Positions 4,261 through 41,698 of a stretch of DNA of 64,000 nt are shown here, one piece after another; position 1 is the first letter of the stretch, and each line of letters begins with the position of its first letter. The notes under the pieces were generated by a model. The model was given only the letters and a program-made list of their open reading frames with translations, was not told where the DNA came from and made no database searches. This DNA comes from a virus (lineage: Duplodnaviria; Caudoviricetes): IMG/VR virus record IMGVR_UViG_3300030419_006251, positions 64,001-128,000 of that record, one strand, 5' to 3'. The translations under genes were made by a program, and so were the position numbers.

Positions 4261-4268
4261 TAAATAGT
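4261..4268 (-). promoter_or_regulatory. ACTATTTA candidate late promoter for the neck genes
   Basis: Motif 20 nt upstream of the gp13-like ATG, with the SD between them. Confidence 0.55.
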
Positions 4269-5469: not shown

Positions 5470-7374
5470 TTAGCTAGTTGCGCCGGCTTCACCGAGGAGA
5501 CCGCGAACGATAACCAGACCGTACATATCCGGACGGACCATCTTCTTACCGTAGCGCGTCATGACGCCCTTACGGGGTACGAAGTCTTCCGTTCCGAAGA
5601 TTGTAGGTGTGGTCTGCAGCGGCACATAAGGTGCGTATACATACCCACTCTCAAGGAAGCTGTTACCGCGGCGGCCGACGAGGACCACATTACGGGGGAA
5701 GTATGGGTCAACCCAAACATCCCACTTCTTGGAGATAGAGCCAGCGTTAACTGCTCCGACGGTACCCTTATCGGCATCAGCGGTGATGTTAGCGCGGAAA
5801 CCACTTGTGAACTCAAGGATATTAGCAACTTCGGGGCCTACGACCAAGAAGTTAGCTCCACCCCGCAGAGTTTTGCGGTGGATCTGTGCAGACACATCGT
5901 TGATAGTCTCAACAAGAGTCTCATACCACTCGCTAACCGTACCGGTGAAGTCGGGTGCAGCAGAGCTAGCTCCGATTTCAACGCCGGTTTCGCGATTGAG
6001 GAACATACCCGGGGAACGAGCCCAGTAATATGTACCAGCGGTAGCGCCTCTAATAAGGTCGTTAACGATCTCGCGGTCAATCTCAAGAGCAATCTGCTCA
6101 GAGAGAATGCCAGTAAGCTCGACTTCGGCATCAAGGTTGTGATAGGCATTAAGATCCTGTCCCAACTCTGGTGTCCACTTAGCCTTGAGCTTCTTGGTGA
6201 TCGCGGTGATCGCAGACGAATCGACCTTGATGTCAATCTCGGGGATTCCCGGATCATTCTCAAGACCCCAAACATCGGCACCAACAACGGCTCCGAGTGC
6301 TCTCTCGCCAACATTATCGAGATTATCGATGATTGGATAAGAGAACGACTTACCACTGCCACCAGCAACTGCGGCTGTGTCGTTGTTTTCGATCAGCGAG
6401 GCGGCGATTGTTGCAGCGGTGGTGGATCCAACAGCCTGCCAAACCATGATGACAGACGAGGCGCCTTCTTCACCAATCTTGTTGTCGATGTCCATAGAAC
6501 GAATTCCGCCCAAGTCCGAATCCTGACCCACAATATGAGTCAAACGACGAACGAGACGACACTCGCTTCTATCAACATCAGATTCACAACCAGTGGCGCC
6601 AGTACCATCAGGCTTAGAACCAGTAGCTTCGATTGCAACCAAGTTATCAAGGTTGAGGCGAGAACCGCTAGCATGCAACCACTGACCAGAACCAGAAGCT
6701 GCGGTGATAACAACGACCGAACCAGAAAGATCTGGGTCGAAACGAACCAGCTTATCTGCTGTGAGTGTTGTGGATCCACCATGATATCCACTAAATGTGA
6801 ACTCATATGAGGATCCGCCGGCGGTCTTAAGACCATCGCCGATAGTACCCTGCCACACAACATCAAGCTCAAGCTGAGTCGAACCGGTTGGAGACGAGTA
6901 GCCATTGTTCATGGAATAGAATCCGGCTTCCGCGTAAGATCCTGTGAGGCTAACGCCACCCATGATTTCCTGACCAACCTTACCGCCGCCGAAGAGGGAA
7001 GCGTCACCGTCAGAACTACCACGAGGGGAGGTTCCGGGAGTGAACTGGAAGTCTAGGAAGAAGATGAGGCCCGAGGGCAAGCTCATCGGCTGAACAGAAA
7101 CGAGATCGTTGGCAATTAAGCCTCCGAAAACGCGGCGCACGATGGGGAATGCAACAGATGCAAAACCCTCGACATCTCCACCAGCCATGGTAGATGCCTC
7201 GCGCAAAAGCTCCTTAGCTTGGTTTTCAAGCAAACGAGCCATGTTAGAACGAGTGTTATCGCTAGAAAGTCCTTCTAAAAGGCCGGTGCGTTCCCACTTA
7301 GAGAGAAGAGCGCTACCTTCCTTACCGAGATCCCTACTAACAATACCTTCGGTTAGTTTTTTTAAAACAGACAT
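5470..7374 (-). CDS. gp23: Major capsid protein (T4 gp23 family)
   Basis: Diagnostic motifs: FPIVRRVF, LIANDLVSVQPM..P.GLIF.L, KKLKAKWTPELGQDLNAYHNLDAE.ELT.ILSEQI.LEIDRE, YAPYVPL, F.PRKGVMTRY. Confidence 0.97.
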   Translation of the reverse strand: MSVLKKLTEGIVSRDLGKEGSALLSKWERTGLLEGLSSDNTRSNMARLLENQAKELLREASTMAGGDVEGFASVAFPIVRRVFGGLIANDLVSVQPMSLPSGLIFFLDFQFTPGTSPRGSSDGDASLFGGGKVGQEIMGGVSLTGSYAEAGFYSMNNGYSSPTGSTQLELDVVWQGTIGDGLKTAGGSSYEFTFSGYHGGSTTLTADKLVRFDPDLSGSVVVITAASGSGQWLHASGSRLNLDNLVAIEATGSKPDGTGATGCESDVDRSECRLVRRLTHIVGQDSDLGGIRSMDIDNKIGEEGASSVIMVWQAVGSTTAATIAASLIENNDTAAVAGGSGKSFSYPIIDNLDNVGERALGAVVGADVWGLENDPGIPEIDIKVDSSAITAITKKLKAKWTPELGQDLNAYHNLDAEVELTGILSEQIALEIDREIVNDLIRGATAGTYYWARSPGMFLNRETGVEIGASSAAPDFTGTVSEWYETLVETINDVSAQIHRKTLRGGANFLVVGPEVANILEFTSGFRANITADADKGTVGAVNAGSISKKWDVWVDPYFPRNVVLVGRRGNSFLESGYVYAPYVPLQTTPTIFGTEDFVPRKGVMTRYGKKMVRPDMYGLVIVRGLLGEAGATS

Positions 7375-7419: not shown

Positions 7420-8661
7420 CTATTTTAGACCGGCAAGAGCTTTCATCCTATCATATGCTTGCACATCACGGGGTTTCTTTTCTTGTCGTCTGGGAAGTAG
7501 AAGAGAACGATCTCTACTAACTGCTTCGCGAAGTGATTGTGGCTTTTTCTTGCTGGTAGTACCAGCAGTCGAGCCCACAGCGCTTTGAAGTGTTTCGTAA
7601 ATCACTTTTGCTTCTTCTACAGAACCGCACTGTGTGATCGCGTCGACAATTTTATTTCTTTGTCGCTCATTCAGCGAGGGATCGCTTAATACACGGTTCG
7701 TATAAAGTAGTCTAGCATTCGAAAGATTGGCATTTGTTAAATGCTCTTGCATTTTCACTAGTGCCTTCTTAAATTGACCACTTTGGTGTTTGTAATAATT
7801 GACTTCAGTCTGAAGTCTCTTAATTGATTCGTTGACTTCTTCAGATTTTTCCTGCTGTTCTGCTACAGCCATTTCGGCTTGAACAATATCTTCCGCTTCT
7901 TGCATAGCGCCTGTTGGTGTAGTTCTACCACCTAAGCCACTATCCGGAGCGCTGAGATTTGCTCTAATTTCCTCGGCTATTTGTGTAACAAGTTCATCAG
8001 GTATCATCATTTCAGAATCAACTGCTTCTTGTAGTTTTTCAGTACTTAAGTTAAGTACCATATCATCTTTAATTTTATAATCTCTTGTATTTTCCATCAT
8101 TGGTTGTGGAGGGCCGCCACGACCGCCGGGAGCCATCGGGCTCAAACCGGGAGGAAGCGCAGGCGGACCGGGGGGCATGCCGGGCATGCCGGGTGGGCCA
8201 GGAGGTGGCGGAGCCATTCCCATGCCTGCACCTTGCGCCTGTTGCGCCTCAAGTGCTTGCTCTTCTGCATCCACTCGGGCGGCTAATTCATTAAAATCTA
8301 TCTCTACCTCTTGGCCTTCGTCTGGACATGGGCATAAAGGCACATTATCTGCATACGCTAGTGGCGCCACGGGGACATCTGCCATGGCAGCCGGATCTGG
8401 CGGAGGCGTGCCACCGGGGCCCGGGGGCATTCCAGGGGGCATTCCAGGGGGCATTCCCGGAGGACCGCCGGCCATCATAGGGTCCATCATAGGATCGGGC
8501 TCAGGTGGCATGCCAGGAGGCATCCCCTGCTCCAACAAAGACTCTACAGCCTTCTTAACTTCTGGTGCGTACTTTTCTATAATTGATTGTTCGGCACTCT
8601 TAACTGCTGCTTCTCTCAAAGCTGTAGCATCAATAATTGCTTGTTCAAGCAATGTAGACAT
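7420..8661 (-). CDS. Prohead core / scaffolding protein (gp22-like) with Pro-Met-Gly-rich segments
   Basis: Immediately upstream of MCP. Coiled-coil C-half with NLSNARLLYTNRVL...LNERQ...IV.AI...S.EE.K.IYETL and a terminal RMKALAGL motif. Confidence 0.8.
   Translation of the reverse strand: MSTLLEQAIIDATALREAAVKSAEQSIIEKYAPEVKKAVESLLEQGMPPGMPPEPDPMMDPMMAGGPPGMPPGMPPGMPPGPGGTPPPDPAAMADVPVAPLAYADNVPLCPCPDEGQEVEIDFNELAARVDAEEQALEAQQAQGAGMGMAPPPPGPPGMPGMPPGPPALPPGLSPMAPGGRGGPPQPMMENTRDYKIKDDMVLNLSTEKLQEAVDSEMMIPDELVTQIAEEIRANLSAPDSGLGGRTTPTGAMQEAEDIVQAEMAVAEQQEKSEEVNESIKRLQTEVNYYKHQSGQFKKALVKMQEHLTNANLSNARLLYTNRVLSDPSLNERQRNKIVDAITQCGSVEEAKVIYETLQSAVGSTAGTTSKKKPQSLREAVSRDRSLLLPRRQEKKPRDVQAYDRMKALAGLK
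8423..8458. repeat. 12-bp tandem repeat x3 (GGGGGCATTCCA), encodes GMPP repeats on the minus strand
   Basis: Read directly from the sequence. The third copy differs at its last base. Confidence 0.9.
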
Positions 8662-8719: not shown

Positions 8720-8727
8720 TAAATAGT
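8720..8727 (-). promoter_or_regulatory. ACTATTTA candidate late promoter for scaffold-MCP
   Basis: Intergenic motif 59 nt upstream of the scaffold ATG. Confidence 0.5.
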
Positions 8728-16808: not shown

Positions 16809-16816
16809 TAAATAGT
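16809..16816 (-). promoter_or_regulatory. ACTATTTA candidate late promoter (second copy, ACTAATTA, at 16853-16860)
   Basis: 23 nt upstream of the ATG at 16786. Confidence 0.5.
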
Positions 16817-20891: not shown

Positions 20892-21350
20892 TTACACCAA
20901 TTTACTCCAATTTTTTGAGGCACCAAAGAAAGCGCCGATGTCTACACCGGAATCTCCAGGGTCTACGCCCGCCAAAGCTCCCGGAGCGCTTGGGCCGGCA
21001 TCCGGAGAGCCGGCTCTTTTAAGGGGCTCTGTTCCTTCAAACAGGTCGACACCATTATAGGCGTCTTTTCCAACAGCGCTGGACATCTGATGTCTAGATT
21101 CCATAATCTTTCTTCTTCTTTCGCGATCTGCCTCGGCAGCGGCTCGAAGTTGTTCTTTTTCTGTAGGCGTATTTCTCGCTTGTGGGGCGCGCGATTCCAC
21201 TATGGGAGTAACGCCAGCAGAATGCACTCCGACCATTACCTCAGTTACGATTCCAGACAAAACACCTTCTTCTAGAATAACCTCTTTTATACACTCTTTA
21301 ATCAGTGGTCTCAATATTTTTTTTAAATCTTGATTATTCATTTTAGTCAC
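20892..21350 (-). CDS. Hypothetical protein (head module)
   Basis: Overlaps the protease stop and abuts bS21. N-terminal LKKILRPLIKECIKE resembles the leader of the MKITK family. Confidence 0.7.
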   Translation of the reverse strand: MTKMNNQDLKKILRPLIKECIKEVILEEGVLSGIVTEVMVGVHSAGVTPIVESRAPQARNTPTEKEQLRAAAEADRERRRKIMESRHQMSSAVGKDAYNGVDLFEGTEPLKRAGSPDAGPSAPGALAGVDPGDSGVDIGAFFGASKNWSKLV

Positions 21351-21957
21351 TCAATATATCATTTAAAATACGATTTATTCTATCTGATTTTGTAAAAACA
21401 TTTGATAAATTTAAATTCTTTGCTTCTTTAATCATATAGGCTTCGTTTGTCGACGGTTCAGATACCATATCAAAACAGATAAGTTGAAAATCATCTTCGA
21501 CAATTGTCTTTCCCTTGCTTTCAGTCACAGAGCCCAAACCTCTAGAAGAAATTCCGAGTTTAACCCCTGCTTTTACCAATTCTTGCAATATCTTACCAGA
21601 TGGAGTATCTAAACATTTAATTTTACCCATAACTGCGTTCGGATTATCTTTGTCCCACCATACCTCAGTAACTAAGTGAGAAGCATTTTTGAGATTTATA
21701 ACTTGTTCGTCTGGATGATCTAATTCGCCCAGTGCACGACTTTCATCAATAAGTTTTTGATAGTTTTTCATTTCCCTTTCTAATATGTGTTTAGGATACA
21801 CTCGGCCATTGCCGTTTTTAGCCTCGGCTTCTTGTAGTTTTCCAGATAATATTACTCCGCCGCCAACGACAAACTCTTTTTCGGACTCAGTTAATAAGTC
21901 CGGGCAAGAGCCTCCATCGCAAAGCTCATAAAATTCTCTTAATAATTTTTTGCTCAT
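21343..21957 (-). CDS. gp21: Prohead core protease (T4 gp21 family)
   Basis: KNGNGRVYP..IL.RE, ALGELDHP, NASH, GISSRGLGSV and DF.LICFD.VSEPST..AY motifs. Confidence 0.95.
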   Translation of the reverse strand: MSKKLLREFYELCDGGSCPDLLTESEKEFVVGGGVILSGKLQEAEAKNGNGRVYPKHILEREMKNYQKLIDESRALGELDHPDEQVINLKNASHLVTEVWWDKDNPNAVMGKIKCLDTPSGKILQELVKAGVKLGISSRGLGSVTESKGKTIVEDDFQLICFDMVSEPSTNEAYMIKEAKNLNLSNVFTKSDRINRILNDILSD

Positions 21958-22387: not shown

Positions 22388-22957
22388 TTACACCCGATAC
22401 ATATCATAGATCCCATAAGGACCGCGGATCCAGCCCGGGCGGAGAGAGCCTTTCGTTTCTTCATGTGGCACCTCTCCAAGTTCTGTCGAATCTTCTTCGT
22501 CAGGATCCAAAAGTTTTTTCTCTTCTTTTTCGAAATAAGCCTTTTCTGCTTGAAAGTACGGACGCTCATCTTCGATAAATTTTCCAATTTGAAATATTGC
22601 TGCCTGGATTGGACTCAGGCCCTCAAATGCCGATTTATGTATTGTCGCTTCAAAAGAGCCGTACACATTTCCACCTTTAATACTATCAAATTCAATTATA
22701 CCTTTTTTGGCCAAATGTTTAAATAGATGATTTTGCGTATCATAAACCTCATCTGTAATTAAGTCTTTAGGAAGAGCAACAATTTTTAATGGTTCAGGTA
22801 TGACAACTATATCAATATCGTCATGGTCAAAAATCATAACACTTCCGTCTACGCCTTTGCGCAGATTCATACTCATGCTGATCTGTGGTTGGCCTGGAGC
22901 AACTCTTTTTTGTTCGTCGTCTGTTTGCGGATCTGTTATCGTTACATCTATAGACAT
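22388..22957 (-). CDS. Hypothetical protein (head module)
   Basis: Coupled to both neighbours. Acidic C-terminus. No family recognised. Confidence 0.7.
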   Translation of the reverse strand: MSIDVTITDPQTDDEQKRVAPGQPQISMSMNLRKGVDGSVMIFDHDDIDIVVIPEPLKIVALPKDLITDEVYDTQNHLFKHLAKKGIIEFDSIKGGNVYGSFEATIHKSAFEGLSPIQAAIFQIGKFIEDERPYFQAEKAYFEKEEKKLLDPDEEDSTELGEVPHEETKGSLRPGWIRGPYGIYDMYRV

Positions 22958-23802
22958 TAGCTTTTAATCTCATTTATAAGAGTTTGCATCTTCAATATCT
23001 TTTTTAGTGCCCTTTCGTCAATTGGATGCTCTTTAAACTCATTTATCATATTTTCCACTTCTTTAACAGAGTCTTTCATAGATCCTGTAAATAGGTCTTC
23101 ATTTTTTGAAGTACTTTCTTGCAAGGTCTTCTGAATCCTGCTAAGTTCGTCTCCGACAAATATCTTTAAACCCACTCCATTGTCTGCGAATGACATAATA
23201 TAATTGCTCAATAACTTCTTTTGTTCCGACAATAAAGAATTATTATATTTGTTATTAAATTTTTGTGTGAAAGTCTTATACACAAGATTGTCGATTTGTA
23301 CAATTTTTTCTGGGGCTTGTTCTGTTGCTAACTCATTGACCAATCTTTCTATTAATTCTTTTTCTAGTAGAACACGCTTTTTCGTGGTTGTGTCTTGATT
23401 GAAAATTTGTGCAATAGTGGCCAAATTTTTATATCCCGGAACAAAGTTCGAGAACACATTTTTTGAAAGGCGTCTGTTAATTAAACCAATAAGAGCGGTT
23501 TGTTCATTAAAAAGTCTTTTTTGATCAACATTTTTGTTTCGATCGCTTTTGATTTCAAATATTAATTTTTCTGCCGTGTATGGATCTAAGCCCGAGGTTT
23601 CATTTAGCGACTTATAAAACCCAAGATCTTTATTTAGATCTGTGCCGCTTGAAAAACAAACCGACAATAATTCTATAATACTATTTTTGCGTTTATGATT
23701 CTCGCTCAGTATTGCTTTAGTAAGCTCGACCATCAAAGCTTCATATAAAAATGCAGTATTTCTTTTTTTATTGTGTCTCTTCTTCGTCGTTTTTGTCGTC
23801 AT
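22957..23802 (-). CDS. Hypothetical helical protein downstream of portal
   Basis: N-terminal RHNKKRNTAFLYEAL. Overlaps the portal 3' end by 35 nt. Confidence 0.7.
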   Translation of the reverse strand: MTTKTTKKRHNKKRNTAFLYEALMVELTKAILSENHKRKNSIIELLSVCFSSGTDLNKDLGFYKSLNETSGLDPYTAEKLIFEIKSDRNKNVDQKRLFNEQTALIGLINRRLSKNVFSNFVPGYKNLATIAQIFNQDTTTKKRVLLEKELIERLVNELATEQAPEKIVQIDNLVYKTFTQKFNNKYNNSLLSEQKKLLSNYIMSFADNGVGLKIFVGDELSRIQKTLQESTSKNEDLFTGSMKDSVKEVENMINEFKEHPIDERALKKILKMQTLINEIKS

Positions 23803-30130: not shown

Positions 30131-30394
30131 TTATTTTTCTGTTTGAAGGCTAGAATTTAAATATTTTTGAAATGTTTGTGTGAAAAACTTGTGAAATCTC
30201 TTGTTACTCCAGCGTTTAAGTCCTTGCTGCTCTTTAAACCAGTTCATAAATTCTTCACTCATTTCAACATTAACAGTGCCAGAGCCATCCTCGTTCTCTT
30301 TCACGCCAACAATCTTTACTTTAAAATTGCCGGCATCAATGTGTTTCTTCACCTCCATTATGTCTCTTAAGCTCAACTTTTTAATATCGGACAT
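30131..30394 (-). CDS. Hypothetical protein
   Basis: Start moved to MSDIKK at 30394 (AAGGAGGG upstream). Overlaps the SbcDC stop. Confidence 0.6.
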   Translation of the reverse strand: MSDIKKLSLRDIMEVKKHIDAGNFKVKIVGVKENEDGSGTVNVEMSEEFMNWFKEQQGLKRWSNKRFHKFFTQTFQKYLNSSLQTEK

Positions 30395-33300
30395 GTGCAA
30401 AACCCTCCTTTTTATCAATATTAATAATTATATCTGCGTTGTCTTTTAGTGTATCCATGTGCGATATTAACAATACAGTCTTATAATAGCTTTTAATCAT
30501 ATCCAAGATTCTAATAAACCCTTCCATGTTTTCTGCGTCTAACGCGGTGCCGGGCTCGTCTAAAATAAATAGATCTCCCTTTGGTAAATTAGACACAGAC
30601 AATAAAGCTATTCGAATTGCCATAGATGCAATGGTTTTTTCTGCTCCGGAGCCCATTTCAATCGGTCTCGGATCATGTTTTGGGTGTTTGATAAAAATAT
30701 TTAACTTCTTACCATCATCTTCAAAATATACATCAAAATTAACAATGTTTGCTAGTGTTTTAGCAATTTCTTCGTTAATGATTGGAAGTTTTCGCTTAAT
30801 AATATCGTAAGCAATTCCATTTGAATGCATGCAGCGCATATAAAGATCAAAAGCCGAATATTCATCGTGTAAATTGTGGTATTCCTGCTTTTGTTCTTCT
30901 AAGTTTCGCAACTTTTGCTCTAGAGAACCGTGTTCTACATACAATGTAGTTAAATTGTCTTCACACTCAACCTTTTCAGAAGCCAAAGTAGCAATTGTTG
31001 CCTTCATTTTGTTTGATTTGGCGATTAAAGATTCTAAATTATCTATTGCTTTCTTATTTTTATCATATTCAACTACCTTTTCGCGCAAATCAACTAAATT
31101 ATTTGACACCTTTTCCAAAGAATTGGTATTTCGCTCAATAGATAAGTTTAATTCCGCAATCTTAGTAGTGACCTCTGTTCGTTTCTTTAAAATATTATTA
31201 TATTTTTCTATATGCCCGAAGACAACTTCAGGATTCAATTTATTTAGCGCCGCTGTGGTGTTTTTTTGCTCGGCAGCTACTTGTGAACGGGACGCAACAG
31301 CAACATTGGCATCTCTAATAAACTTGCATTTCGGAAAGGAATCACCGCAAGGAATTCCATCTAACAATTTTGCCTTTTTATCCGCATTTTCTATCTCTTT
31401 TTCCAAGTTAGTGATGTTGTTCTTTAGAAGAACAATCTCTTCTTTCTGCAGTTCCAGTTCTTCGATATCCATGCTGTCTATAAAGTTTGCGATTTTCTCA
31501 AAAAGCTCTGTTCGTATCTTAAGATCTTGTCTTTCTTCGACAATCTTAGACTGTAGCGACATCTGTTGTGCTTCTAATTTTCGTATCTCGTTTTTTGTCT
31601 TTACGATATCAATCACTTCAACAGGAATTGAGCCAATTTTAGCTTGAATTTTTGATAATTTCTCGTCAACTTTATTAATCGATGTTTGGTGTGCTTCGCA
31701 TTTGTTCTTGTATTGTGTGATATTGTCTTCACTTTCACACAACTCGATTGTCGCGGCTGCGATCTCTTCATCAAACTCCTTATCTTGCAATCTTCTTAGG
31801 GCGCCCCTCAAATCACTGGCGTCTTCTTTCGCTAGCTTATACTTTTTCTCGAAGATTTCTAAATCCAAAAATTTCGCTAAAATTTCCTTGCGGCGAGTTG
31901 AACCTTCATTGATAAATGTTAAGGAGTCAAGCTGACTCGCCATCGAAGATAGTAAAAAATCATCTAAAGTTCCAAACTTTTTACGAATGTTTTTATCTGT
32001 TTCTATTCTGCTAAGACCATTTAAGCTCTGTGTTGCTCCCACTGCCTGATCGGTACATTCAAAGTTGACATCAGTTTTAGCTTCTAGCGTTTCTTCACCT
32101 TTTAACCTCTTGACATACTTTTCTGATATTCGACTAATCTTATAGGACTTTTCACCAATGGAGATATCAATTTCTCCCATGCACGATTGTCTATTTTGAT
32201 TAATAACATTAAGGTTTTTGCGTTCATTTTTAGAAGTCGAGTTAAACATAGTGTAGAGAATAGAATCAATAATACTACTCTTTCCGCTATAATTCTTGCC
32301 GAAGATTCCAACAACACCGTTAAGTTTAGAAAAGTCAATTATATTGCCTTTTCCGTAATTAAACAGGTTGTCCCACTTTACCGAATTCAACTTCCAATTA
32401 ACATTTCTGCTAACTTCTTCCTCCTGTTCCGCTAACTGATTATATTTGCCATTTAGCGATAATACGCGCTCCATAAGAGCTTCGCCAACCTCATAATCCT
32501 TCAAATACTCACGCATTAGTTTTTCTTGTACGGCAGTATCACGAAGATTTTCTTTAACAATTGTGTTTGTTAAAGAATCCACGCTTCCTCGCTGTCCAGA
32601 AGCCCTATTTAAAAATGTGATAGCTTCGGGGCGGAAGCGATGCTTTGCAATGTCAACGGCGCGCCTCATGCGAGCTAGAGGAAGGTTATTGTTCGAAACA
32701 AGCCTTAATCGAGCCCCCTTGGGAATCTTTGTACCCTTTGGAAGCCGGCCTTTTGGAGTTAGCTCGATAGTAACAAATGGCTTTGGATTTTTAAAAGCAA
32801 CATGCTCACATGTGAAATTATCTTTATCTTGAATGTCCCACAATAACAGGCCCTTGTCATTCGTTTCGCCATGATTTTGCTGAATTGTGCTTCCGGGGTA
32901 CCGAATTCGACCTTCTCGGTCTAAAGCCTGATTTGTTTTGTGAATATCGCCCAAAAAAGCAAAATCAAACTGTTTGAAAATAGAGACATTATGTTCTCCA
33001 TGTTCCATAACCCATCCAATATCGGTCTTAACTCCGGAAATTGAGCCATGATATAGCGCAATATTGATCTTATCTGGATCTGATGGTTCACACCAATTAT
33101 CTTCATCAAAAACAGATAATACATTTAAACAGAATTTGCCATTTAAATCAGTCTCGCCAGAATTCTTCAATAAATATAAGTCTGGTAGACTGAGTGCTTC
33201 CACAATTGGCGTTAATGCATCTTGTCTACTGCTATTTTTAAGATTACCATCGTGATTTCCCAAGATAATATATGTTGGCGCGATAGCTGCTAAATTACGA

Positions 33301-33491
33301 AAAAACTCCGAGCACATTTCGACAAATTCTGGCGAGATCTGTGTCTTTGTATGAGCAATATCTCCGCAATGAACAATATAATCTACCTTTTCTTCTTTTA
33401 GTTTCTCATATAGTTGTTCAAAAATTACGCGATATTCGTAATGGTATTTTAAATTTTTTATGTGCGTATCCGCAATGTGCGCGAACTTCAA
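30381..33491 (-). CDS. Fused Mre11/SbcD nuclease - Rad50/SbcC ATPase (gp47-gp46-like) recombination protein
   Basis: N-terminal phosphoesterase motifs ADTH, GDIAH, GNHD, LYHG, GDIH. Then Walker A GKNYSGKS, a long coiled coil, signature MGSGAEK, Walker B FILDEP and H-loop LISH, all in one uninterrupted frame. Confidence 0.93.
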   Translation of the reverse strand: MKFAHIADTHIKNLKYHYEYRVIFEQLYEKLKEEKVDYIVHCGDIAHTKTQISPEFVEMCSEFFRNLAAIAPTYIILGNHDGNLKNSSRQDALTPIVEALSLPDLYLLKNSGETDLNGKFCLNVLSVFDEDNWCEPSDPDKINIALYHGSISGVKTDIGWVMEHGEHNVSIFKQFDFAFLGDIHKTNQALDREGRIRYPGSTIQQNHGETNDKGLLLWDIQDKDNFTCEHVAFKNPKPFVTIELTPKGRLPKGTKIPKGARLRLVSNNNLPLARMRRAVDIAKHRFRPEAITFLNRASGQRGSVDSLTNTIVKENLRDTAVQEKLMREYLKDYEVGEALMERVLSLNGKYNQLAEQEEEVSRNVNWKLNSVKWDNLFNYGKGNIIDFSKLNGVVGIFGKNYSGKSSIIDSILYTMFNSTSKNERKNLNVINQNRQSCMGEIDISIGEKSYKISRISEKYVKRLKGEETLEAKTDVNFECTDQAVGATQSLNGLSRIETDKNIRKKFGTLDDFLLSSMASQLDSLTFINEGSTRRKEILAKFLDLEIFEKKYKLAKEDASDLRGALRRLQDKEFDEEIAAATIELCESEDNITQYKNKCEAHQTSINKVDEKLSKIQAKIGSIPVEVIDIVKTKNEIRKLEAQQMSLQSKIVEERQDLKIRTELFEKIANFIDSMDIEELELQKEEIVLLKNNITNLEKEIENADKKAKLLDGIPCGDSFPKCKFIRDANVAVASRSQVAAEQKNTTAALNKLNPEVVFGHIEKYNNILKKRTEVTTKIAELNLSIERNTNSLEKVSNNLVDLREKVVEYDKNKKAIDNLESLIAKSNKMKATIATLASEKVECEDNLTTLYVEHGSLEQKLRNLEEQKQEYHNLHDEYSAFDLYMRCMHSNGIAYDIIKRKLPIINEEIAKTLANIVNFDVYFEDDGKKLNIFIKHPKHDPRPIEMGSGAEKTIASMAIRIALLSVSNLPKGDLFILDEPGTALDAENMEGFIRILDMIKSYYKTVLLISHMDTLKDNADIIINIDKKEGFAHVRY

Positions 33492-33727: not shown

Positions 33728-33756
33728 AATGTAACACATGTGGTAAAATCTGTCAA
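33728..33756 (-). promoter_or_regulatory. Sigma70-type promoter TTGACA-17-TACATT with extended -10 TG
   Basis: Perfect -35, 17-nt spacer, TGn directly before TACATT. Intergenic and upstream of the SbcDC unit. Confidence 0.75.
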
Positions 33757-33764
33757 GACTTTTC

Positions 33765-34079
33765 TTATATGTATATCCCTAGTTTGTGCATCATCTGATG
33801 CATCGCTTCCCAAACAGATTCAGGCAAATGTCCGGCTTCGTGAGCTTCTACTACAAGATGATAAGCATCTTGGTATTGCTCTCTTTCTGCGCGAGTGAGT
33901 TCTACTTCTAATTGTTCTTTGATCGTCAGTTTGTCAAGCTCTTCTGCTACAAGCTGCTTAAGTTCAAAGCCTTTTACTTTAATTTTCGCTTCGTTCTTTT
34001 CCTTTTCTTCCCAATCGTTAGCCATTTCAGGCTCGTTGGCATGCATCCATCTTCTTTGTTTTTCAGATTTGAATGGCAT
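33765..34079 (-). CDS. Hypothetical protein (MPFKSEKQRR N-terminus plus internal MKITK-like motif)
   Basis: MPFKSEKQRRWMHANEPE followed by KIKVKGFELKQLVAEEL. Confidence 0.65.
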   Translation of the reverse strand: MPFKSEKQRRWMHANEPEMANDWEEKEKNEAKIKVKGFELKQLVAEELDKLTIKEQLEVELTRAEREQYQDAYHLVVEAHEAGHLPESVWEAMHQMMHKLGIYI

Positions 34080-34765
34080 TATTTATCAAGCCCTTTTCCG
34101 CCCGTAGTTCCATCGAGAAGGGCCTGCAACTGCCCTAGGGCGCCCTCTGCATCTCCTTGCTTCAGCTTGCGCACAGCCTCCTCTACGGTCGATCTAAGCA
34201 CATCTTCGTAGGAAGGTTCTCCCATACTGGGATCATGTATAATGTCTTGACCACCAAGCTGGGCCATGGCGCTTTGACCTTGTTCTGTTAAATAATAAAG
34301 CTCTTCAGAAATAATACTTGAAAGCGATTGTTTTGTGAATTTGACTTTTCTATGCTCTCCAAGTCCAATTGCTACCGGCTGAGAAGGCATCAGTTCATAT
34401 TCCAGAAAGCTTCGGACAGAGTTAAGATAATCGGAGGCTTTCGTTAATTTAGACTGGACCCATGCTTGTAATTCGTCGTCCTCACTCACCAATCCTTTGA
34501 GCATACCGGCATTTTGCATAATCTGCTGTAGTTGTGATAAGGCCATTCTTCCTTCGTGATCATGATGATCATCAGACATAGACATATCGCCGCTTCCAGC
34601 ATATGAGGGGTGCTGTACTGCCGGTCCGTGTCCCATTGAGCCGTGTCCCATGTCCGGCATCATTTCTACATGACCTTGCATTGACATGTCGCCGCAGCCA
34701 CCCTCGGCTAATCTTGCTTTTTCTTCAGCAATAAGCTGTTTAAGTTGTGTTTTTGTGATTTTCAT
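34079..34765 (-). CDS. MKITK-family protein with His/Met-rich segment
   Basis: MKITKTQLKQLIAEE leader, GHVEMMPDMGHGSMGHG...DDHHDHEG segment and a second leader-like KVKFTKQSLSSIISEEL. Confidence 0.7.
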   Translation of the reverse strand: MKITKTQLKQLIAEEKARLAEGGCGDMSMQGHVEMMPDMGHGSMGHGPAVQHPSYAGSGDMSMSDDHHDHEGRMALSQLQQIMQNAGMLKGLVSEDDELQAWVQSKLTKASDYLNSVRSFLEYELMPSQPVAIGLGEHRKVKFTKQSLSSIISEELYYLTEQGQSAMAQLGGQDIIHDPSMGEPSYEDVLRSTVEEAVRKLKQGDAEGALGQLQALLDGTTGGKGLDK

Positions 34766-34768
34766 TTT

Positions 34769-35032
34769 CTATTCCCCTAATCCGTAATCTCGGCAAGGTT
34801 CGGCATGTCGTCTACCCACAAGCTTACCGCCCATTGCTTCATCAGCGGCCCTTAACGCGTCTTCGGCTTCCTGCGGCCAGTAGTTTTTCATTTTTTGACA
34901 ATCTTCGCCTGCCTCTATGAAAGCCTTCCTCTTTGCTTCCATCAGCTTGTGATAGTCGGAAGGGGGCGGTGCCATCGTTTTTTCAAGCTCTTCCTTGATA
35001 ATCTGCCTGAGTTGTGATTTTGTGATTTTCAT
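34769..35032 (-). CDS. MKITK-family small protein
   Basis: MKITKSQLRQIIKEEL leader, coupled to its neighbours. Confidence 0.7.
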   Translation of the reverse strand: MKITKSQLRQIIKEELEKTMAPPPSDYHKLMEAKRKAFIEAGEDCQKMKNYWPQEAEDALRAADEAMGGKLVGRRHAEPCRDYGLGE

Positions 35033-36477
35033 TTTCTATGAGTCCCATAAGGTTTTAGAGCAACATCTCTCATTCTTTTAAAAGGATCTTGGGATTCTTT
35101 CATTTTTTTGCTGGGGCCGGTTTGACTTTCATACAAATCTCGCCTTGGTGGAGCGCTTGCGCCTCCAGGAGGCCGGTTATGGACTGGATGGCCACCGGGG
35201 GGCGGTTGATATCCGTCATAATAATTCTGACTAGGGTCAGTGGAAGACAGGCCCCAAACCATAGGTGAAGTTTGGCCTTTGGGTACGCGCTGGTGAAATT
35301 CCACGCGGTTTCCAACTTGAGTGGGAATGATGGCCGATCTGTATCCCCCGCCGGCCGGAACATCGTCAATATGAATACAACCTCCCGGACGGTCGGCGCA
35401 ATGGGCAGGTGCGTCCGGCCGGACTGGCTCGGACTCAGATGCCGCTGACAATCTGGCCATACAATCCATCATACTCTCTCCGGGCATGTTGTCATCCGGA
35501 CACCTGAAGCCCGGGCCATTCTCATTGATTATCTGCATAATCGCTTCCACAATCTCGTCTGATGTGGGCTCGACTTGCTCACTGACCCATCTCCCGGTTG
35601 CCTTGTTTGCAACATCTGATCGCTCAAACTTGCCAGCTTTTGTATTTGGACCATGCTCTTGATTCTTTTTGCCTCGATTCTTTTTGGCGCCCATATCTGT
35701 GGCCTGGTTTGCAATGTCTGCTCGATCTATCTTACCAGCCTTTGTATTTGGGCCGTGACCTTTGGTGTTCTTATTTTTCTTTTGCGGAGCGCCTAAATCT
35801 TTAACCTGATTTGCGATATCTGTTCGGTCCATCTTGCCGGCCTTCGCACTAGGTCCATTTCTTTTGCTCGCTTCGCCTAATAAGCTTATAAATTCTTGTT
35901 TAATGATCTTATTTAACGATCCATATGATCCATAGTATCCGTCGCCTACAGGAGCAGGAACATGCCTTCTCTCATAGAGATCTCGCTTAGCGCCGGATAC
36001 ACTAGTCGTCTTCGCCCCTTTCAGGCCTAGGCCTTCAAGTTCTTTTCTACTTCCATAGTAACCTCTAACCATATCATCGTATAAGTCTTGCGCCGGGCTT
36101 TCACCGCGTGTGGCGCCACTTGTCCAGTCCTTGTCGCCGTAGCGAGAATCATCGAAGAACATGAGTTCATAGTTAAACCCCTCGGGATTCAATTCATGAA
36201 ATCTTTCGACAGCCTGTCGGGGAGAAAACTCTCCTTCATGGCCGGCCGGTATATAGGTTCGTTCGCCGCCCGGAAATGGCATGTCAACCCAGGGCAGATC
36301 AGGCATAAGATTCCACAAAGGACCATATACTTGCTGATCGAAGGTGTTAACCGGATCCGCTTGTTGTTGGGCCGGATCCGCTTGTTGTTGGGCCGGATCC
36401 GCTTCTTGTTGTTCGTTCAGAAAATATCTTGCGTTTATTCCCTTCTTGTTTTTTGTTGGTTTGCCCCATCTACTCAT
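35029..36477 (-). CDS. 482-aa low-complexity repeat-containing hypothetical protein
   Basis: QQ(Q/E)ADP x3, a ~34-aa basic repeat GP..KAGK..R.D.AN x3, and a Pro/Gly-rich tail. Confidence 0.7.
   Translation of the reverse strand: MSRWGKPTKNKKGINARYFLNEQQEADPAQQQADPAQQQADPVNTFDQQVYGPLWNLMPDLPWVDMPFPGGERTYIPAGHEGEFSPRQAVERFHELNPEGFNYELMFFDDSRYGDKDWTSGATRGESPAQDLYDDMVRGYYGSRKELEGLGLKGAKTTSVSGAKRDLYERRHVPAPVGDGYYGSYGSLNKIIKQEFISLLGEASKRNGPSAKAGKMDRTDIANQVKDLGAPQKKNKNTKGHGPNTKAGKIDRADIANQATDMGAKKNRGKKNQEHGPNTKAGKFERSDVANKATGRWVSEQVEPTSDEIVEAIMQIINENGPGFRCPDDNMPGESMMDCMARLSAASESEPVRPDAPAHCADRPGGCIHIDDVPAGGGYRSAIIPTQVGNRVEFHQRVPKGQTSPMVWGLSSTDPSQNYYDGYQPPPGGHPVHNRPPGGASAPPRRDLYESQTGPSKKMKESQDPFKRMRDVALKPYGTHRK
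36351..36413. repeat. 21-bp tandem repeat x3 (CCGGATCCGCTTGTTGTTGGG)
   Basis: Two identical copies and one slightly degenerate copy. Encodes QQQADPA on the minus strand. Confidence 0.92.
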
Positions 36478-36821
36478 CAGTATTGTTCTCCTTGTTCAAA
36501 ATCGCGAAATTCATCTTCTATTATAGTAGGTAAATCTACAAAACTAGGCAAATTCAAGCCTTCAATAAAGTTGCTAGCTGCAGAATCAATAACATCTGCA
36601 ACTTCTTTATACGCTGATTCTTTATTGAAAGATGGGTGCTCTTTATATTCGTCAATTACTGCAAAAGATAGATCTCGCATTGCTTGCTGCAACTTTTCAA
36701 TTAAGTCATCGTACCCGCGATTCATGTCTTCTGGGTAGTAGTCATCGGCCGGCGGCTCATTCTGCTCTCTTAGCAATTCTTCGCTTATGAGCTGTCGCAA
36801 CCTATTTATAGTTGTCTTCAC
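36477..36821 (-). CDS. MKITK-family acidic protein
   Basis: MKTTINRLRQLISEELL leader. GTG start with AAGGAG upstream and ACTATTTA at 36868-36875. Confidence 0.65.
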   Translation of the reverse strand: MKTTINRLRQLISEELLREQNEPPADDYYPEDMNRGYDDLIEKLQQAMRDLSFAVIDEYKEHPSFNKESAYKEVADVIDSAASNFIEGLNLPSFVDLPTIIEDEFRDFEQGEQY

Positions 36822-36840: not shown

Positions 36841-37779
36841 TTAGATCTGCATTAATGCTTTCTTCAATAAATAGTCGCCTTGTGTGATAAAAGTTGCATT
36901 TTCTTTTCGTTCTTTAAACCTTTCCTTTGTCATTACCCCAACATCTTCATATCCTGTTGTATCAACTTTATATGTCTCAATCCCATATTTTAATAAAAGG
37001 TTAATAATTTTGGCCTCTTTTTTCTCTGCGTCGGCGTCGAGAGCTAAATAAACGGGCGTATCGTTTTTAACTATTTTATGAAAAAGCTTTGAGTTTTCGC
37101 GGAGCGTAGAACCAAGCAACGGAATTGCGTTTGGGCCTGCCTGTATTGCATCAAATATGCCCTCTGTAATGACCAAATCATCATCCCAATCAATATACAA
37201 CTCATTAAAGCAAATATCGCGAGAAACTGGTGGGTTTTTATACCTTTTTGGACTCTTGTTGTAAGATCTGGCGACAAAATAGTTAACATAACCCTCTTCA
37301 TTAAAACTGGGAATCACAATTCTTCCTGCATATGCTCCCTTTACACAATATCCGATCTTCCAGTGCAGAATATCTCTTTTAGAAATATCTCTTTTGGTTA
37401 AATACTTTAATGCCGAGAGAGCCGTAAACGGAGTTGAGCCATTGGCCAACGATTCAAATTCTTCCGGTAGCCTGATCTTCTGCTCTTGTTGCTTAACTTC
37501 ATCTTTTCCAAACAACACTCTGTCAAACTTGTTGATGTCGACTGTATTAGAAAGCTCGTCCCACCTCTGAAGCTGTTTATAATCTCCATATCGGCGTACA
37601 ATGCGGCGGATATCGCGGCCTGTTGTGTCGCAAACCCAGCATTTAAACACATTTTTCGCAAAATTAATAGACATTTTACGCTTTTCATGTTTGCAATACG
37701 GACAGAAAAATAGCACCTCATCATTTGATTTAAAGCTATTTCCTAAAATTTTAGTAATGATTTTGATTTTTTCATGCAT
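36841..37779 (-). CDS. dnaG: DNA primase (DnaG-like, zinc finger + TOPRIM)
   Basis: CPYC.H...S.N....FKCWVC zinc-binding domain, GRIVIP catalytic core, TOPRIM TEGIFDAI and LDAD motifs. Confidence 0.9.
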   Translation of the reverse strand: MHEKIKIITKILGNSFKSNDEVLFFCPYCKHEKRKMSINFAKNVFKCWVCDTTGRDIRRIVRRYGDYKQLQRWDELSNTVDINKFDRVLFGKDEVKQQEQKIRLPEEFESLANGSTPFTALSALKYLTKRDISKRDILHWKIGYCVKGAYAGRIVIPSFNEEGYVNYFVARSYNKSPKRYKNPPVSRDICFNELYIDWDDDLVITEGIFDAIQAGPNAIPLLGSTLRENSKLFHKIVKNDTPVYLALDADAEKKEAKIINLLLKYGIETYKVDTTGYEDVGVMTKERFKERKENATFITQGDYLLKKALMQI

Positions 37780-37785
37780 GCTATT

Positions 37786-37814
37786 AATATAGCCTTATTG
37801 GTGCGAATTGTCAA
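37786..37814 (-). promoter_or_regulatory. Sigma70-type promoter TTGACA-17-TATATT for primase (probably leaderless)
   Basis: Perfect -35 inside the resolvase 3' end, 17-nt spacer, 5/6 match at -10. The ATG begins 6 nt after the -10 and there is no SD. Confidence 0.72.
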
Positions 37815-39529: not shown

Positions 39530-39537
39530 TAATTAGT
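39530..39537 (-). promoter_or_regulatory. ACTAATTA candidate late promoter
   Basis: Intergenic, 8 nt upstream of the ATG at 39522. Confidence 0.45.
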
Positions 39538-41690: not shown

Positions 41691-41698
41691 TAATTAGT
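41691..41698 (-). promoter_or_regulatory. ACTAATTA candidate late promoter
   Basis: 22 nt upstream of the ATG at 41669. Confidence 0.55.

Follow-up and report, generated by a model that had tools for sequence, protein, structure and literature searches.

How might a phage use a 16-residue peptide that it places on proteins with nothing else in common? The question is raised by an array of genes at positions 33765–36821, minus strand, of a 64,000-nucleotide (nt) stretch of phage DNA (Duplodnaviria; Caudoviricetes). This stretch, hereafter the window, comprises bases 64,001–128,000 of the 200,760-bp IMG/VR virus record IMGVR_UViG_3300030419_006251. Nearly all window genes lie on the minus strand, and the array is flanked by genes for a DnaG-type primase (36841–37779) and a fused SbcD-SbcC nuclease (30381–33491). 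Its five genes are tightly packed and translationally coupled, with stop/start overlaps or gaps of 1–3 nt, and their products have 114, 482, 87, 228 and 104 amino acids (aa). They carry two canonical starts of a leader with the 16-residue consensus MKITKxQLKQIIKEEL, one divergent start, and two or three internal copies. An earlier note on this DNA had taken the leader for a candidate capsid-targeting tag removed by a protease. The open reading frames (ORFs) of the array are as follows.

36477–36821, minus strand: 114-aa ORF, isoelectric point (pI) 4.2, GTG start with an AAGGAG Shine-Dalgarno site; diverged leader MKTTINRLRQLISEEL encoded at 36774–36821.
35029–36477, minus strand: 482-aa mosaic ORF without an N-terminal leader; internal SLNKIIKQEF at 35890–35928.
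34769–35032, minus strand: 87-aa ORF; canonical leader MKITKSQLRQIIKEEL encoded at 34985–35032.
34079–34765, minus strand: 228-aa ORF; canonical leader MKITKTQLKQLIAEEK (34718–34765) and internal copy KVKFTKQSLSSIISEEL (34298–34348).
33765–34079, minus strand: 104-aa ORF; a MPFKSEKQRRWM module, then the internal leader copy KIKVKGFELKQLVAEE (33939–33989), then cargo.

The leader sequences quoted in the earlier note were all found in the minus-strand ORFs named above (114, 87, 228, 104 and 482 aa). The starts of the 87-aa and 228-aa proteins follow the pattern MKITK(S/T)QL(R/K)Q(I/L)I(K/A)EE. The copies were scored with a hidden Markov model (HMM) built from unrelated metagenomic copies, selected by pattern only, which is too narrow to score diverged copies well. 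The canonical copies gave E-values of 1.6e-12 (87-aa protein) and 1.9e-8 (N-terminus of the 228-aa protein), the start of the 114-aa protein gave 0.26, and two internal copies gave 1.6–4.2, the upper value belonging to the 228-aa protein. When all 200,760 bp of the genome were translated in six frames, the five copies of the array came out as the five best stretches. Homologues of the 114-aa protein begin with MKLTKTHITKIIQEEL or MNLTNKQLIKLIRESL, leader variants that align with its own start; that start is therefore a diverged leader. The 104-aa protein ends in cargo that, in the matching protein of a relative (L114; E = 1.5e-11), stands directly behind an N-terminal leader; the internal copy in the 104-aa protein is therefore a fusion scar. 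The internal copies that had been claimed are present in the 228-, 104- and 482-aa proteins, of which SLNKIIKQE in the 482-aa protein was not significant alone. Past the leader, the array proteins share no significant similarity, as the note had said (best pairwise E-value 0.05), and none of the five gave a significant match in Pfam or PHROGs. The leader observation is confirmed as real.

The leader, back-translated into a strict DNA pattern, matched at least 120 loci in IMG/VR. These loci yielded 174 leader ORFs, often two to five in tandem; 162 are complete and span 36–384 aa, with a median of 107 aa. Syntenic relatives of this phage, with TerL 65–70% and portal ~70% identical, account for 108 of the 120 loci listed, and the leader genes at these 108 loci fall within a head/packaging region of conserved gene order. 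In these relatives, leader genes are found (i) between the primase and SbcCD genes, (ii) between SbcCD and p138, (iii) amid the small genes upstream of TerL, (iv) between p192 and TerL, (v) between the portal-proximal genes and the protease gene, and (vi) after the protease gene. The slot between portal and protease is where T4 has its genes 67 and 68. On contigs without obvious synteny, six of ten carried a Peptidase_S77 (S77) protease, and the remaining four are fragments. A 30-position leader profile searched against 1.84 billion proteins (E ≤ 0.001, clusters at 50% identity) returned 8,896 cluster representatives. The top matches are proteins with two to four complete leaders, and Met is still found before each internal one. 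The cargo is diverse, with 161 sequences falling into 125 clusters and a larger set of 229 into 175; a Pfam match was found in two of 71 leader proteins, namely the FliG C-terminal domain (PF01706, E = 1.8e-8) and DUF6321.

The leader pattern gave one match in 185,579 bacterial and archaeal genomes, on the 305-kb contig NHDW01000006.1 of a metagenome-assembled genome labelled ‘Methylococcaceae bacterium TMED69’. This is most likely a jumbo-phage contig, mis-binned or host-associated. It bears at least 11 consecutive MKIT(K/R)RQLRRIIKE genes (L134 2734–7910, L135), its own S77 protease gene with the same neighbours, and homologues of the 281-aa and 152-aa proteins of the head module described below. 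A search of the contig for the capsid family of nucleocytoplasmic large DNA viruses gave no match, and the search's own control likewise gave none. The leader family is thus large and virus-restricted. A literature search with leader strings found no paper.

Conservation within the leader follows a fixed register. Met occupied position 1 in 339 of 366 HMM matches at the IMG/VR loci; of the remainder, most begin with GTG or TTG, and some eight copies are genuinely internal. For the register test, 335 distinct N-termini were picked on residues 1–8 only. Among them, the best-kept free positions were Ile12 (326/335) and Glu14 (328/335), and [ILVM]-x-E stood at residues 12–14 in 328. Residue 13 is variable (K, R, Q, L, E, A). 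Glu predominates at residue 15, where Ala or Ser also occurs, and residue 16 is hydrophobic. Beyond residue 16, conservation collapses.

A hydrophobic-x-Glu site near the N-terminus recalls T4. As reported in PMC9026906, T4 gp21 cuts after L/I-X-E, and the 10-residue capsid-targeting sequence (CTS) of T4 internal proteins ends in such a site, which agrees with the account of a ~10-aa CTS cut by gp21 after (I/L)-x-E in the earlier note. The CTS sequence is MKTYQEFIAE (PMC8442874), and processing in T4 is prevented by an Asp in its final position (PMC9026906). The genome that holds the array has a T4-like head module with TerL (phrog_2), portal (phrog_213), a Peptidase_S77 protease and a Gp23-family major capsid protein (MCP). 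The genes that matter here are listed below.

21343–21957, minus strand: prohead protease of the T4 gp21 type (Peptidase_S77; PF03420 E = 1.7e-28; phrog_207 E = 2e-51); N-terminus MSKKLLRE.
20892–21350, minus strand: 152-aa conserved protein, directly downstream of the protease; N-terminus LKKILRPLIKE.
5470–7374, minus strand: MCP, Gp23 family (PF07068 E = 2e-57), predicted propeptide cut after LRE59; start MSVLKKLTE.
7420–8661, minus strand: 413-aa scaffold candidate, acidic, helical and Pro-rich, upstream of the MCP gene; nine [IL]xE sites; ACTATTTA 59 nt upstream.

The gp23 propeptide of T4 has 65 residues (PMC5694885), and in a BLASTP alignment the T4 gp23 maturation site FLTE65 aligns with LLRE59|A of this MCP. 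Because of this alignment, the S77 protease of this phage has probably kept the (I/L)-x-E specificity. The N-terminal LL(R/T)E of the protease is conserved in 22 relatives, and T4 gp21 has LIE-9. The starts of the protease, the MCP and the 152-aa protein, which the earlier note had likened to the leader, exist and are conserved in relatives, but the likeness of the protease and the MCP comes down to (L/I)-x-E near the N-terminus. By sequence, the closest look-alike among these head proteins appears to be the N-terminus of the 152-aa protein. In relatives, this protein begins MKKSELKQLIKPLVKECIxEVLLEE, which is leader-like and packed with (I/L)-x-E. Its homologue on the 305-kb contig begins MAKVTKKVLKEIVKQCLVE, so that the leader-like start is found in two lineages.

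A protein that is to survive amid an (I/L)-x-E protease in the head would be expected to avoid (I/L)-x-E. We compared one representative per cluster, with 175 cargo clusters set against 423 clusters of other ORFs from the same loci. The ratio of observed to expected [IL]xE was 0.82 in cargo and 1.22 in other ORFs. The mirror motif E.[IL] gave 1.32 and 1.31, and [IL]x[DQK] gave 1.38 and 1.19, respectively; for V-x-E, cargo equalled the controls. The bootstrap difference in [IL]xE between cargo and controls was −0.55 to −0.24, with zero reached in 0 of 4,000 resamples. The cargo specifically avoids (I/L)-x-E. Head-module proteins deviated in the other direction, with [IL]xE over expectation 3.6-fold in the 152-aa protein, 2.4-fold in the protease, and 2.2-fold in both the 281-aa protein (22957–23802) and the MCP, in ratios that scatter widely for single families. 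By analogy with T4 core proteins, this enrichment suggests multiple processing sites in the four proteins.

The timing of expression bears on the same question. The following elements surround the array.

36868–36875, minus strand: ACTATTTA, candidate late-promoter motif, 47 nt upstream of the array and inside the 3′ end of the primase gene.
39530–39537, 41691–41698, 16809–16816, 8720–8727 and 4261–4268, minus strand: examples of further ACTAWTTA copies.
37786–37814, minus strand: sigma-70-like promoter TTGACA-17-TATATT before the primase gene, 11 of 12 matches.
33728–33756, minus strand: sigma-70-like promoter TTGACA-17-TACATT with TG, just after the array and before the SbcCD unit.

ACTAWTTA occurs in 35 copies on the coding strand against two on the other, and it is enriched 8–70 nt upstream of structural genes (the fibre-like, scaffold-candidate, 281-aa, 399-aa and 312-aa genes). 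It is a candidate late promoter, unlike TATAAATA of T4. In relatives, it stood within 120 nt upstream of 10 of the 162 leader ORFs, where ~2.5 were expected. One relative (L129) repeats the layout, with a promoter, the primase gene, an embedded ACTATTTA, four leader genes, SbcCD, a second motif and another leader gene. Relatives also have leader genes within the head operon. A search of sequencing runs listed marine DNA metagenomes only and no RNA. The strand-specific motif that the earlier note had placed before the array is therefore there; its calling the motif late is a separate matter, to which we return.

In the reading that we favour, the leader would be a portable N-terminal amphipathic-helix tag, carried by unrelated small proteins in a marine clade of far-T4-like phages. 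It would steer these proteins into the core of the assembling prohead, where the gp21-type protease, cutting after Ile12-x-Glu14, would set the mature protein free within the head. The array would be expressed late from the ACTAWTTA motif. The internal copies in the 228-aa and 104-aa proteins would have arisen when adjacent leader genes fused in frame, and the protease could separate the fused products as it would a polyprotein. A cleavable tag predicts that such fusions are tolerated, whereas they are hard to square with an obligate N-terminal signal. Prohead targeting, cleavage at Glu14 and late expression from ACTAWTTA are steps that we infer. A T4-like tag that both targets the prohead and is cleaved has, on this analogy, about an even chance of being correct. 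The modular tag tied to a T4-type head protease, as the earlier note had it, is thus supported in part, and each indirect test that we ran fits it.

The likeness to the T4 system goes beyond the protease. According to PMC9026906, PMC3012670 and PMC8442874, in what they relate of Mullaney and Black (1996), the CTS of IPI, IPII and IPIII and the short propeptides of Alt and gp24 are cut by gp21 after L/I-X-E. T-even internal proteins are diverse and share only the CTS (PMC3012670). Likewise, the leader is a short N-terminal tag on unrelated proteins that ends in hydrophobic-x-Glu, its cargo is highly diverse with fast turnover, and the same genome encodes a gp21-family (S77) protease and an MCP with a conserved propeptide site. 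The leader differs in having 16 residues instead of 10, in forming polyprotein-like fusions with two to four tags, and in belonging to a family that exceeds that of T4 by orders of magnitude (at least 8,896 clusters). As recounted in PMC3012670 and PMC9026906, novel ORFs in the variable internal-protein loci of T-even phages keep a CTS-like start. The leader slots are similarly hyper-variable sites of small ORFs with the leader alone in common, but they are many and lie both across the head/packaging module and between replication genes.

Two further systems invite comparison. In phiKZ, 201phi2-1 and SPN3US, head and ejection proteins have long propeptides cut by gp21-like proteases after S/A-x-E (PMC5694885). 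There, too, a diverged gp21-type protease processes many head-internal proteins, and paralogues can have identical N-termini (SPN3US gp53 and gp54); however, the propeptides mostly exceed 100 residues and are paralogue-specific, unlike one 16-mer on unrelated proteins. In encapsulins, a short conserved cargo-loading peptide brings diverse cargo into an HK97-fold shell. Those peptides are usually C-terminal and uncleaved, serve a cellular nanocompartment, and have no sequence relation to the leader. What the present analysis adds is a count across the whole library, the finding that the leader is restricted to viruses, the fixed register of I-x-E and the signal of motif avoidance.

We must also note what weighs against a T4-like capsid tag. 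The leader has no homology to MKTYQEFIAE, and a direct reading finds only M, K and the hydrophobic-x-E pattern in common. T4 internal proteins are basic, whereas leader cargo is mostly acidic (median pI 4.9). The exact leader is in no cultured phage, its DNA pattern being absent from immuto, S-SM2, HTVC008M and Mel-JY01. The co-occurrence of leader and S77 protease is not an independent association, because the leader occurs only in one phage lineage and relatives of it, so that the two are phylogenetically confounded. The likeness of the 152-aa family to the leader is positionally consistent and modest, with alignment scores of 26–37 against 34 for the best of 4,300 shuffles. Comparison of this family with T4 gp67, gp68 and gp22 by hhalign gave probabilities below 5% and detected no homology. 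The portal, the intended positive control for motif avoidance, was not depleted (1.16), which leaves the avoidance logic without a positive control. As for timing, the name ‘late’ for ACTAWTTA is drawn solely from the genes behind the motif, and no convincing terminator was found between the primase gene and the array, so that early read-through from the primase promoter unit into the array is possible.

A close variant of this reading keeps the loading and the cut and makes the proteins disposable fillers of the core or scaffold, degraded or expelled before DNA packaging. The position of relatives' leader genes at T4 genes 67 and 68 speaks for it, as do the leader-like 152-aa protein, full of cleavage motifs as a degradable core protein would be, and the acidity of the cargo, which resembles T4 core proteins gp67 and gp22. 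Yet the cargo avoids [IL]xE, the opposite of degradable proteins and of the 152-aa protein itself, and its extreme diversity and turnover fit arms-race roles better than structural filling. We consider this variant improbable.

No better placed is a generic docking or oligomerisation helix for a cytoplasmic hub of phage or host (a chaperone, polymerase or ribosome), with neither capsid link nor cleavage. In the AlphaFold2 model of the 87-aa protein (mean predicted local distance difference test score 73), the leader is a helix (residues 5–19) followed by a loop and a helical body, which suits a free amphipathic helix; all 16 leader residues are nearly invariant, beyond the needs of a protease site, and the array here lies between replication genes. 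What a docking helix leaves unexplained is the avoidance of [IL]xE by the cargo, the preference of leader genes for the head/packaging module, the late-type motif, and the resemblance to the start of the protein encoded next to the protease.

Membrane association or export, with the inner membrane or a secretion route as destination, is distinctly unlikely. The N-terminus of the leader is Lys-rich and amphipathic, and T4 proheads do assemble on the membrane (PMC9026906). However, polar and charged residues alternate with I and L at leader residues 6–16, which leaves no Sec/Tat hydrophobic core of 7–15 residues. In addition, just two of 162 cargo sequences have a transmembrane-like segment, and internal copies in fusions would be useless as N-terminal export signals.

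Still less credit is due to an element acting in the nucleic acid, whereby the repeated 45-nt start would serve to swap gene cassettes by recombination or to enhance translation initiation. The 87-aa and 228-aa genes are indeed alike in DNA around their starts, the arrays sit in hyper-variable slots, and the codons are A-rich. Nevertheless, synonymous codons vary freely at all leader positions while the amino acids are invariant, and upstream only the Shine-Dalgarno site is conserved; selection therefore acts on the peptide and not on the DNA, and we rejected this explanation on account of the synonymous variation. Internal in-frame copies also keep the peptide, and cassette shuffling may be a side effect rather than a selected function. 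Least credible of all is a leader of ribosomally synthesized and post-translationally modified peptides (RiPPs), with one common enzyme modifying a variable core as in prochlorosins, which would account for a conserved leader, a hyper-variable remainder and tandem arrays but not for cargo of ~90 residues that is helical, acidic and not Cys/Ser/Thr-rich, for the want of a modifying enzyme as a constant neighbour (the arrays sit in many different slots), or for the lack of any RiPP-associated Pfam family among the leader proteins scanned.

The individual cargo proteins give some view of how the array is put together. The 482-aa protein contains three GPxxKAGKxxRxDxAN modules [GP(N/S)xKAGKxxRxD(I/V)AN] and a 21-bp tandem repeat at 36351–36411 that encodes ADPAQQQ three times. 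Its homologue P0023 resembles it at both termini and carries two internal LNQIIREEL motifs, which are clearer than the copy here. In metagenomic proteins P0018, P0019 and P0021, the GPxxKAGK module stands after an HExxH metallopeptidase-like domain. Orthologues of the 87-aa protein, with 63–71% identity, occupy the same slot between primase and SbcCD in relatives; a tblastn search of 50,697 phage records with this protein gave no match. The predicted complex of the 87-aa protein with the 413-aa scaffold candidate scored 0.00 and gave no verdict. Residues 71–139 of the 228-aa protein form a WVQ(S/A)K(L/I)TKAxDYL-type domain, which recurs in 700–840-aa mosaic proteins adjoining TerL in immuto (L001 4381–6906), cyanophage S-SM2 (T4-GC 119; L002 3683–5809) and pelagiphage HTVC008M, and also as stand-alone leader cargo in relatives (leader ORF in L084). 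A look-up of the 228-aa and 152-aa proteins in the ESM Atlas returned unnamed viral clusters only. The G+C content is 0.478 in the array (34001–36000) and 0.35–0.40 in the flanking replication genes, which makes the cassette genes compositionally distinct.

By TerL, the closest cultured relatives are Flavobacterium phage immuto and Microcystis phage Mel-JY01 (44–46% identity), and identity to cyanophage T4-likes is ~33%; the phage belongs to an uncultured marine lineage distant from T4. In Mel-JY01, the gene order is as here, with portal, small genes, protease, a 155-aa gene and bS21. A literature search gave no paper on Mel-JY01 and, judged by titles and abstracts, none on virion proteomics of immuto. 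A close variant of the leader is carried by immuto, whose 74-aa protein before the protease starts MKKSQIVKAVQEVLEE and whose gp191 starts MKKSQLRQIIKEALD. Just upstream of TerL in the same phage (L001 8006–9007 and 9007–9306), two proteins have a different N-terminal motif in common, NF(N/D)L(R/K)xFLxENKLTxNxxxLKE, which may represent a second leader family. In the genome of the array, outside the window, two more proteins begin with diverged leader-like sequences, MSKKLTRKQIESIIRRQL (genome positions 173635–174423) and MSRESKRRQQVEKIIREEL (182267–183307); both genes have a ACTAATTA motif upstream, and they flank a 2273-aa protein. Also outside the window, at 190–198 kb of the genome, near-identical sigma-70-like promoters TTGAC(T/A)-N17-(G)CTATATT cluster before small genes at one end of the genome, and the promoters before the primase and SbcCD genes belong to the same family. 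By sequence, this family probably represents early promoters, and it speaks for a host that uses canonical −35/−10 promoters.

What the mature proteins would do after release is a further step. By analogy with T4, they may be kept in the head and injected as host-directed effectors, for instance against host defence, which we hold possible but doubtful; the effector-delivery part of the proposed reading is one that we purely infer. Equally tentative is the wider picture of a clade-wide arsenal of many thousand families of small, mostly acidic proteins, some of them made as polyproteins, loaded into the capsid, released by the protease and injected as takeover or anti-defence effectors, with a tag that mimics the N-terminus of a conserved head-core protein. 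If such an arsenal exists, no other natural capsid cargo system known would come near it in size. Should the capsid-tag reading fail, the leader would still rank with the most widely distributed conserved peptide motifs of marine viromes. If it is true, a single short peptide would account for why thousands of dark-matter gene families are present in an abundant group of uncultured marine phages and for where they lie, and leader genes would be candidate injected effectors and a natural place to seek anti-defence proteins. The capsid-targeting principle of T4 would then be ancient and expandable on a large scale.

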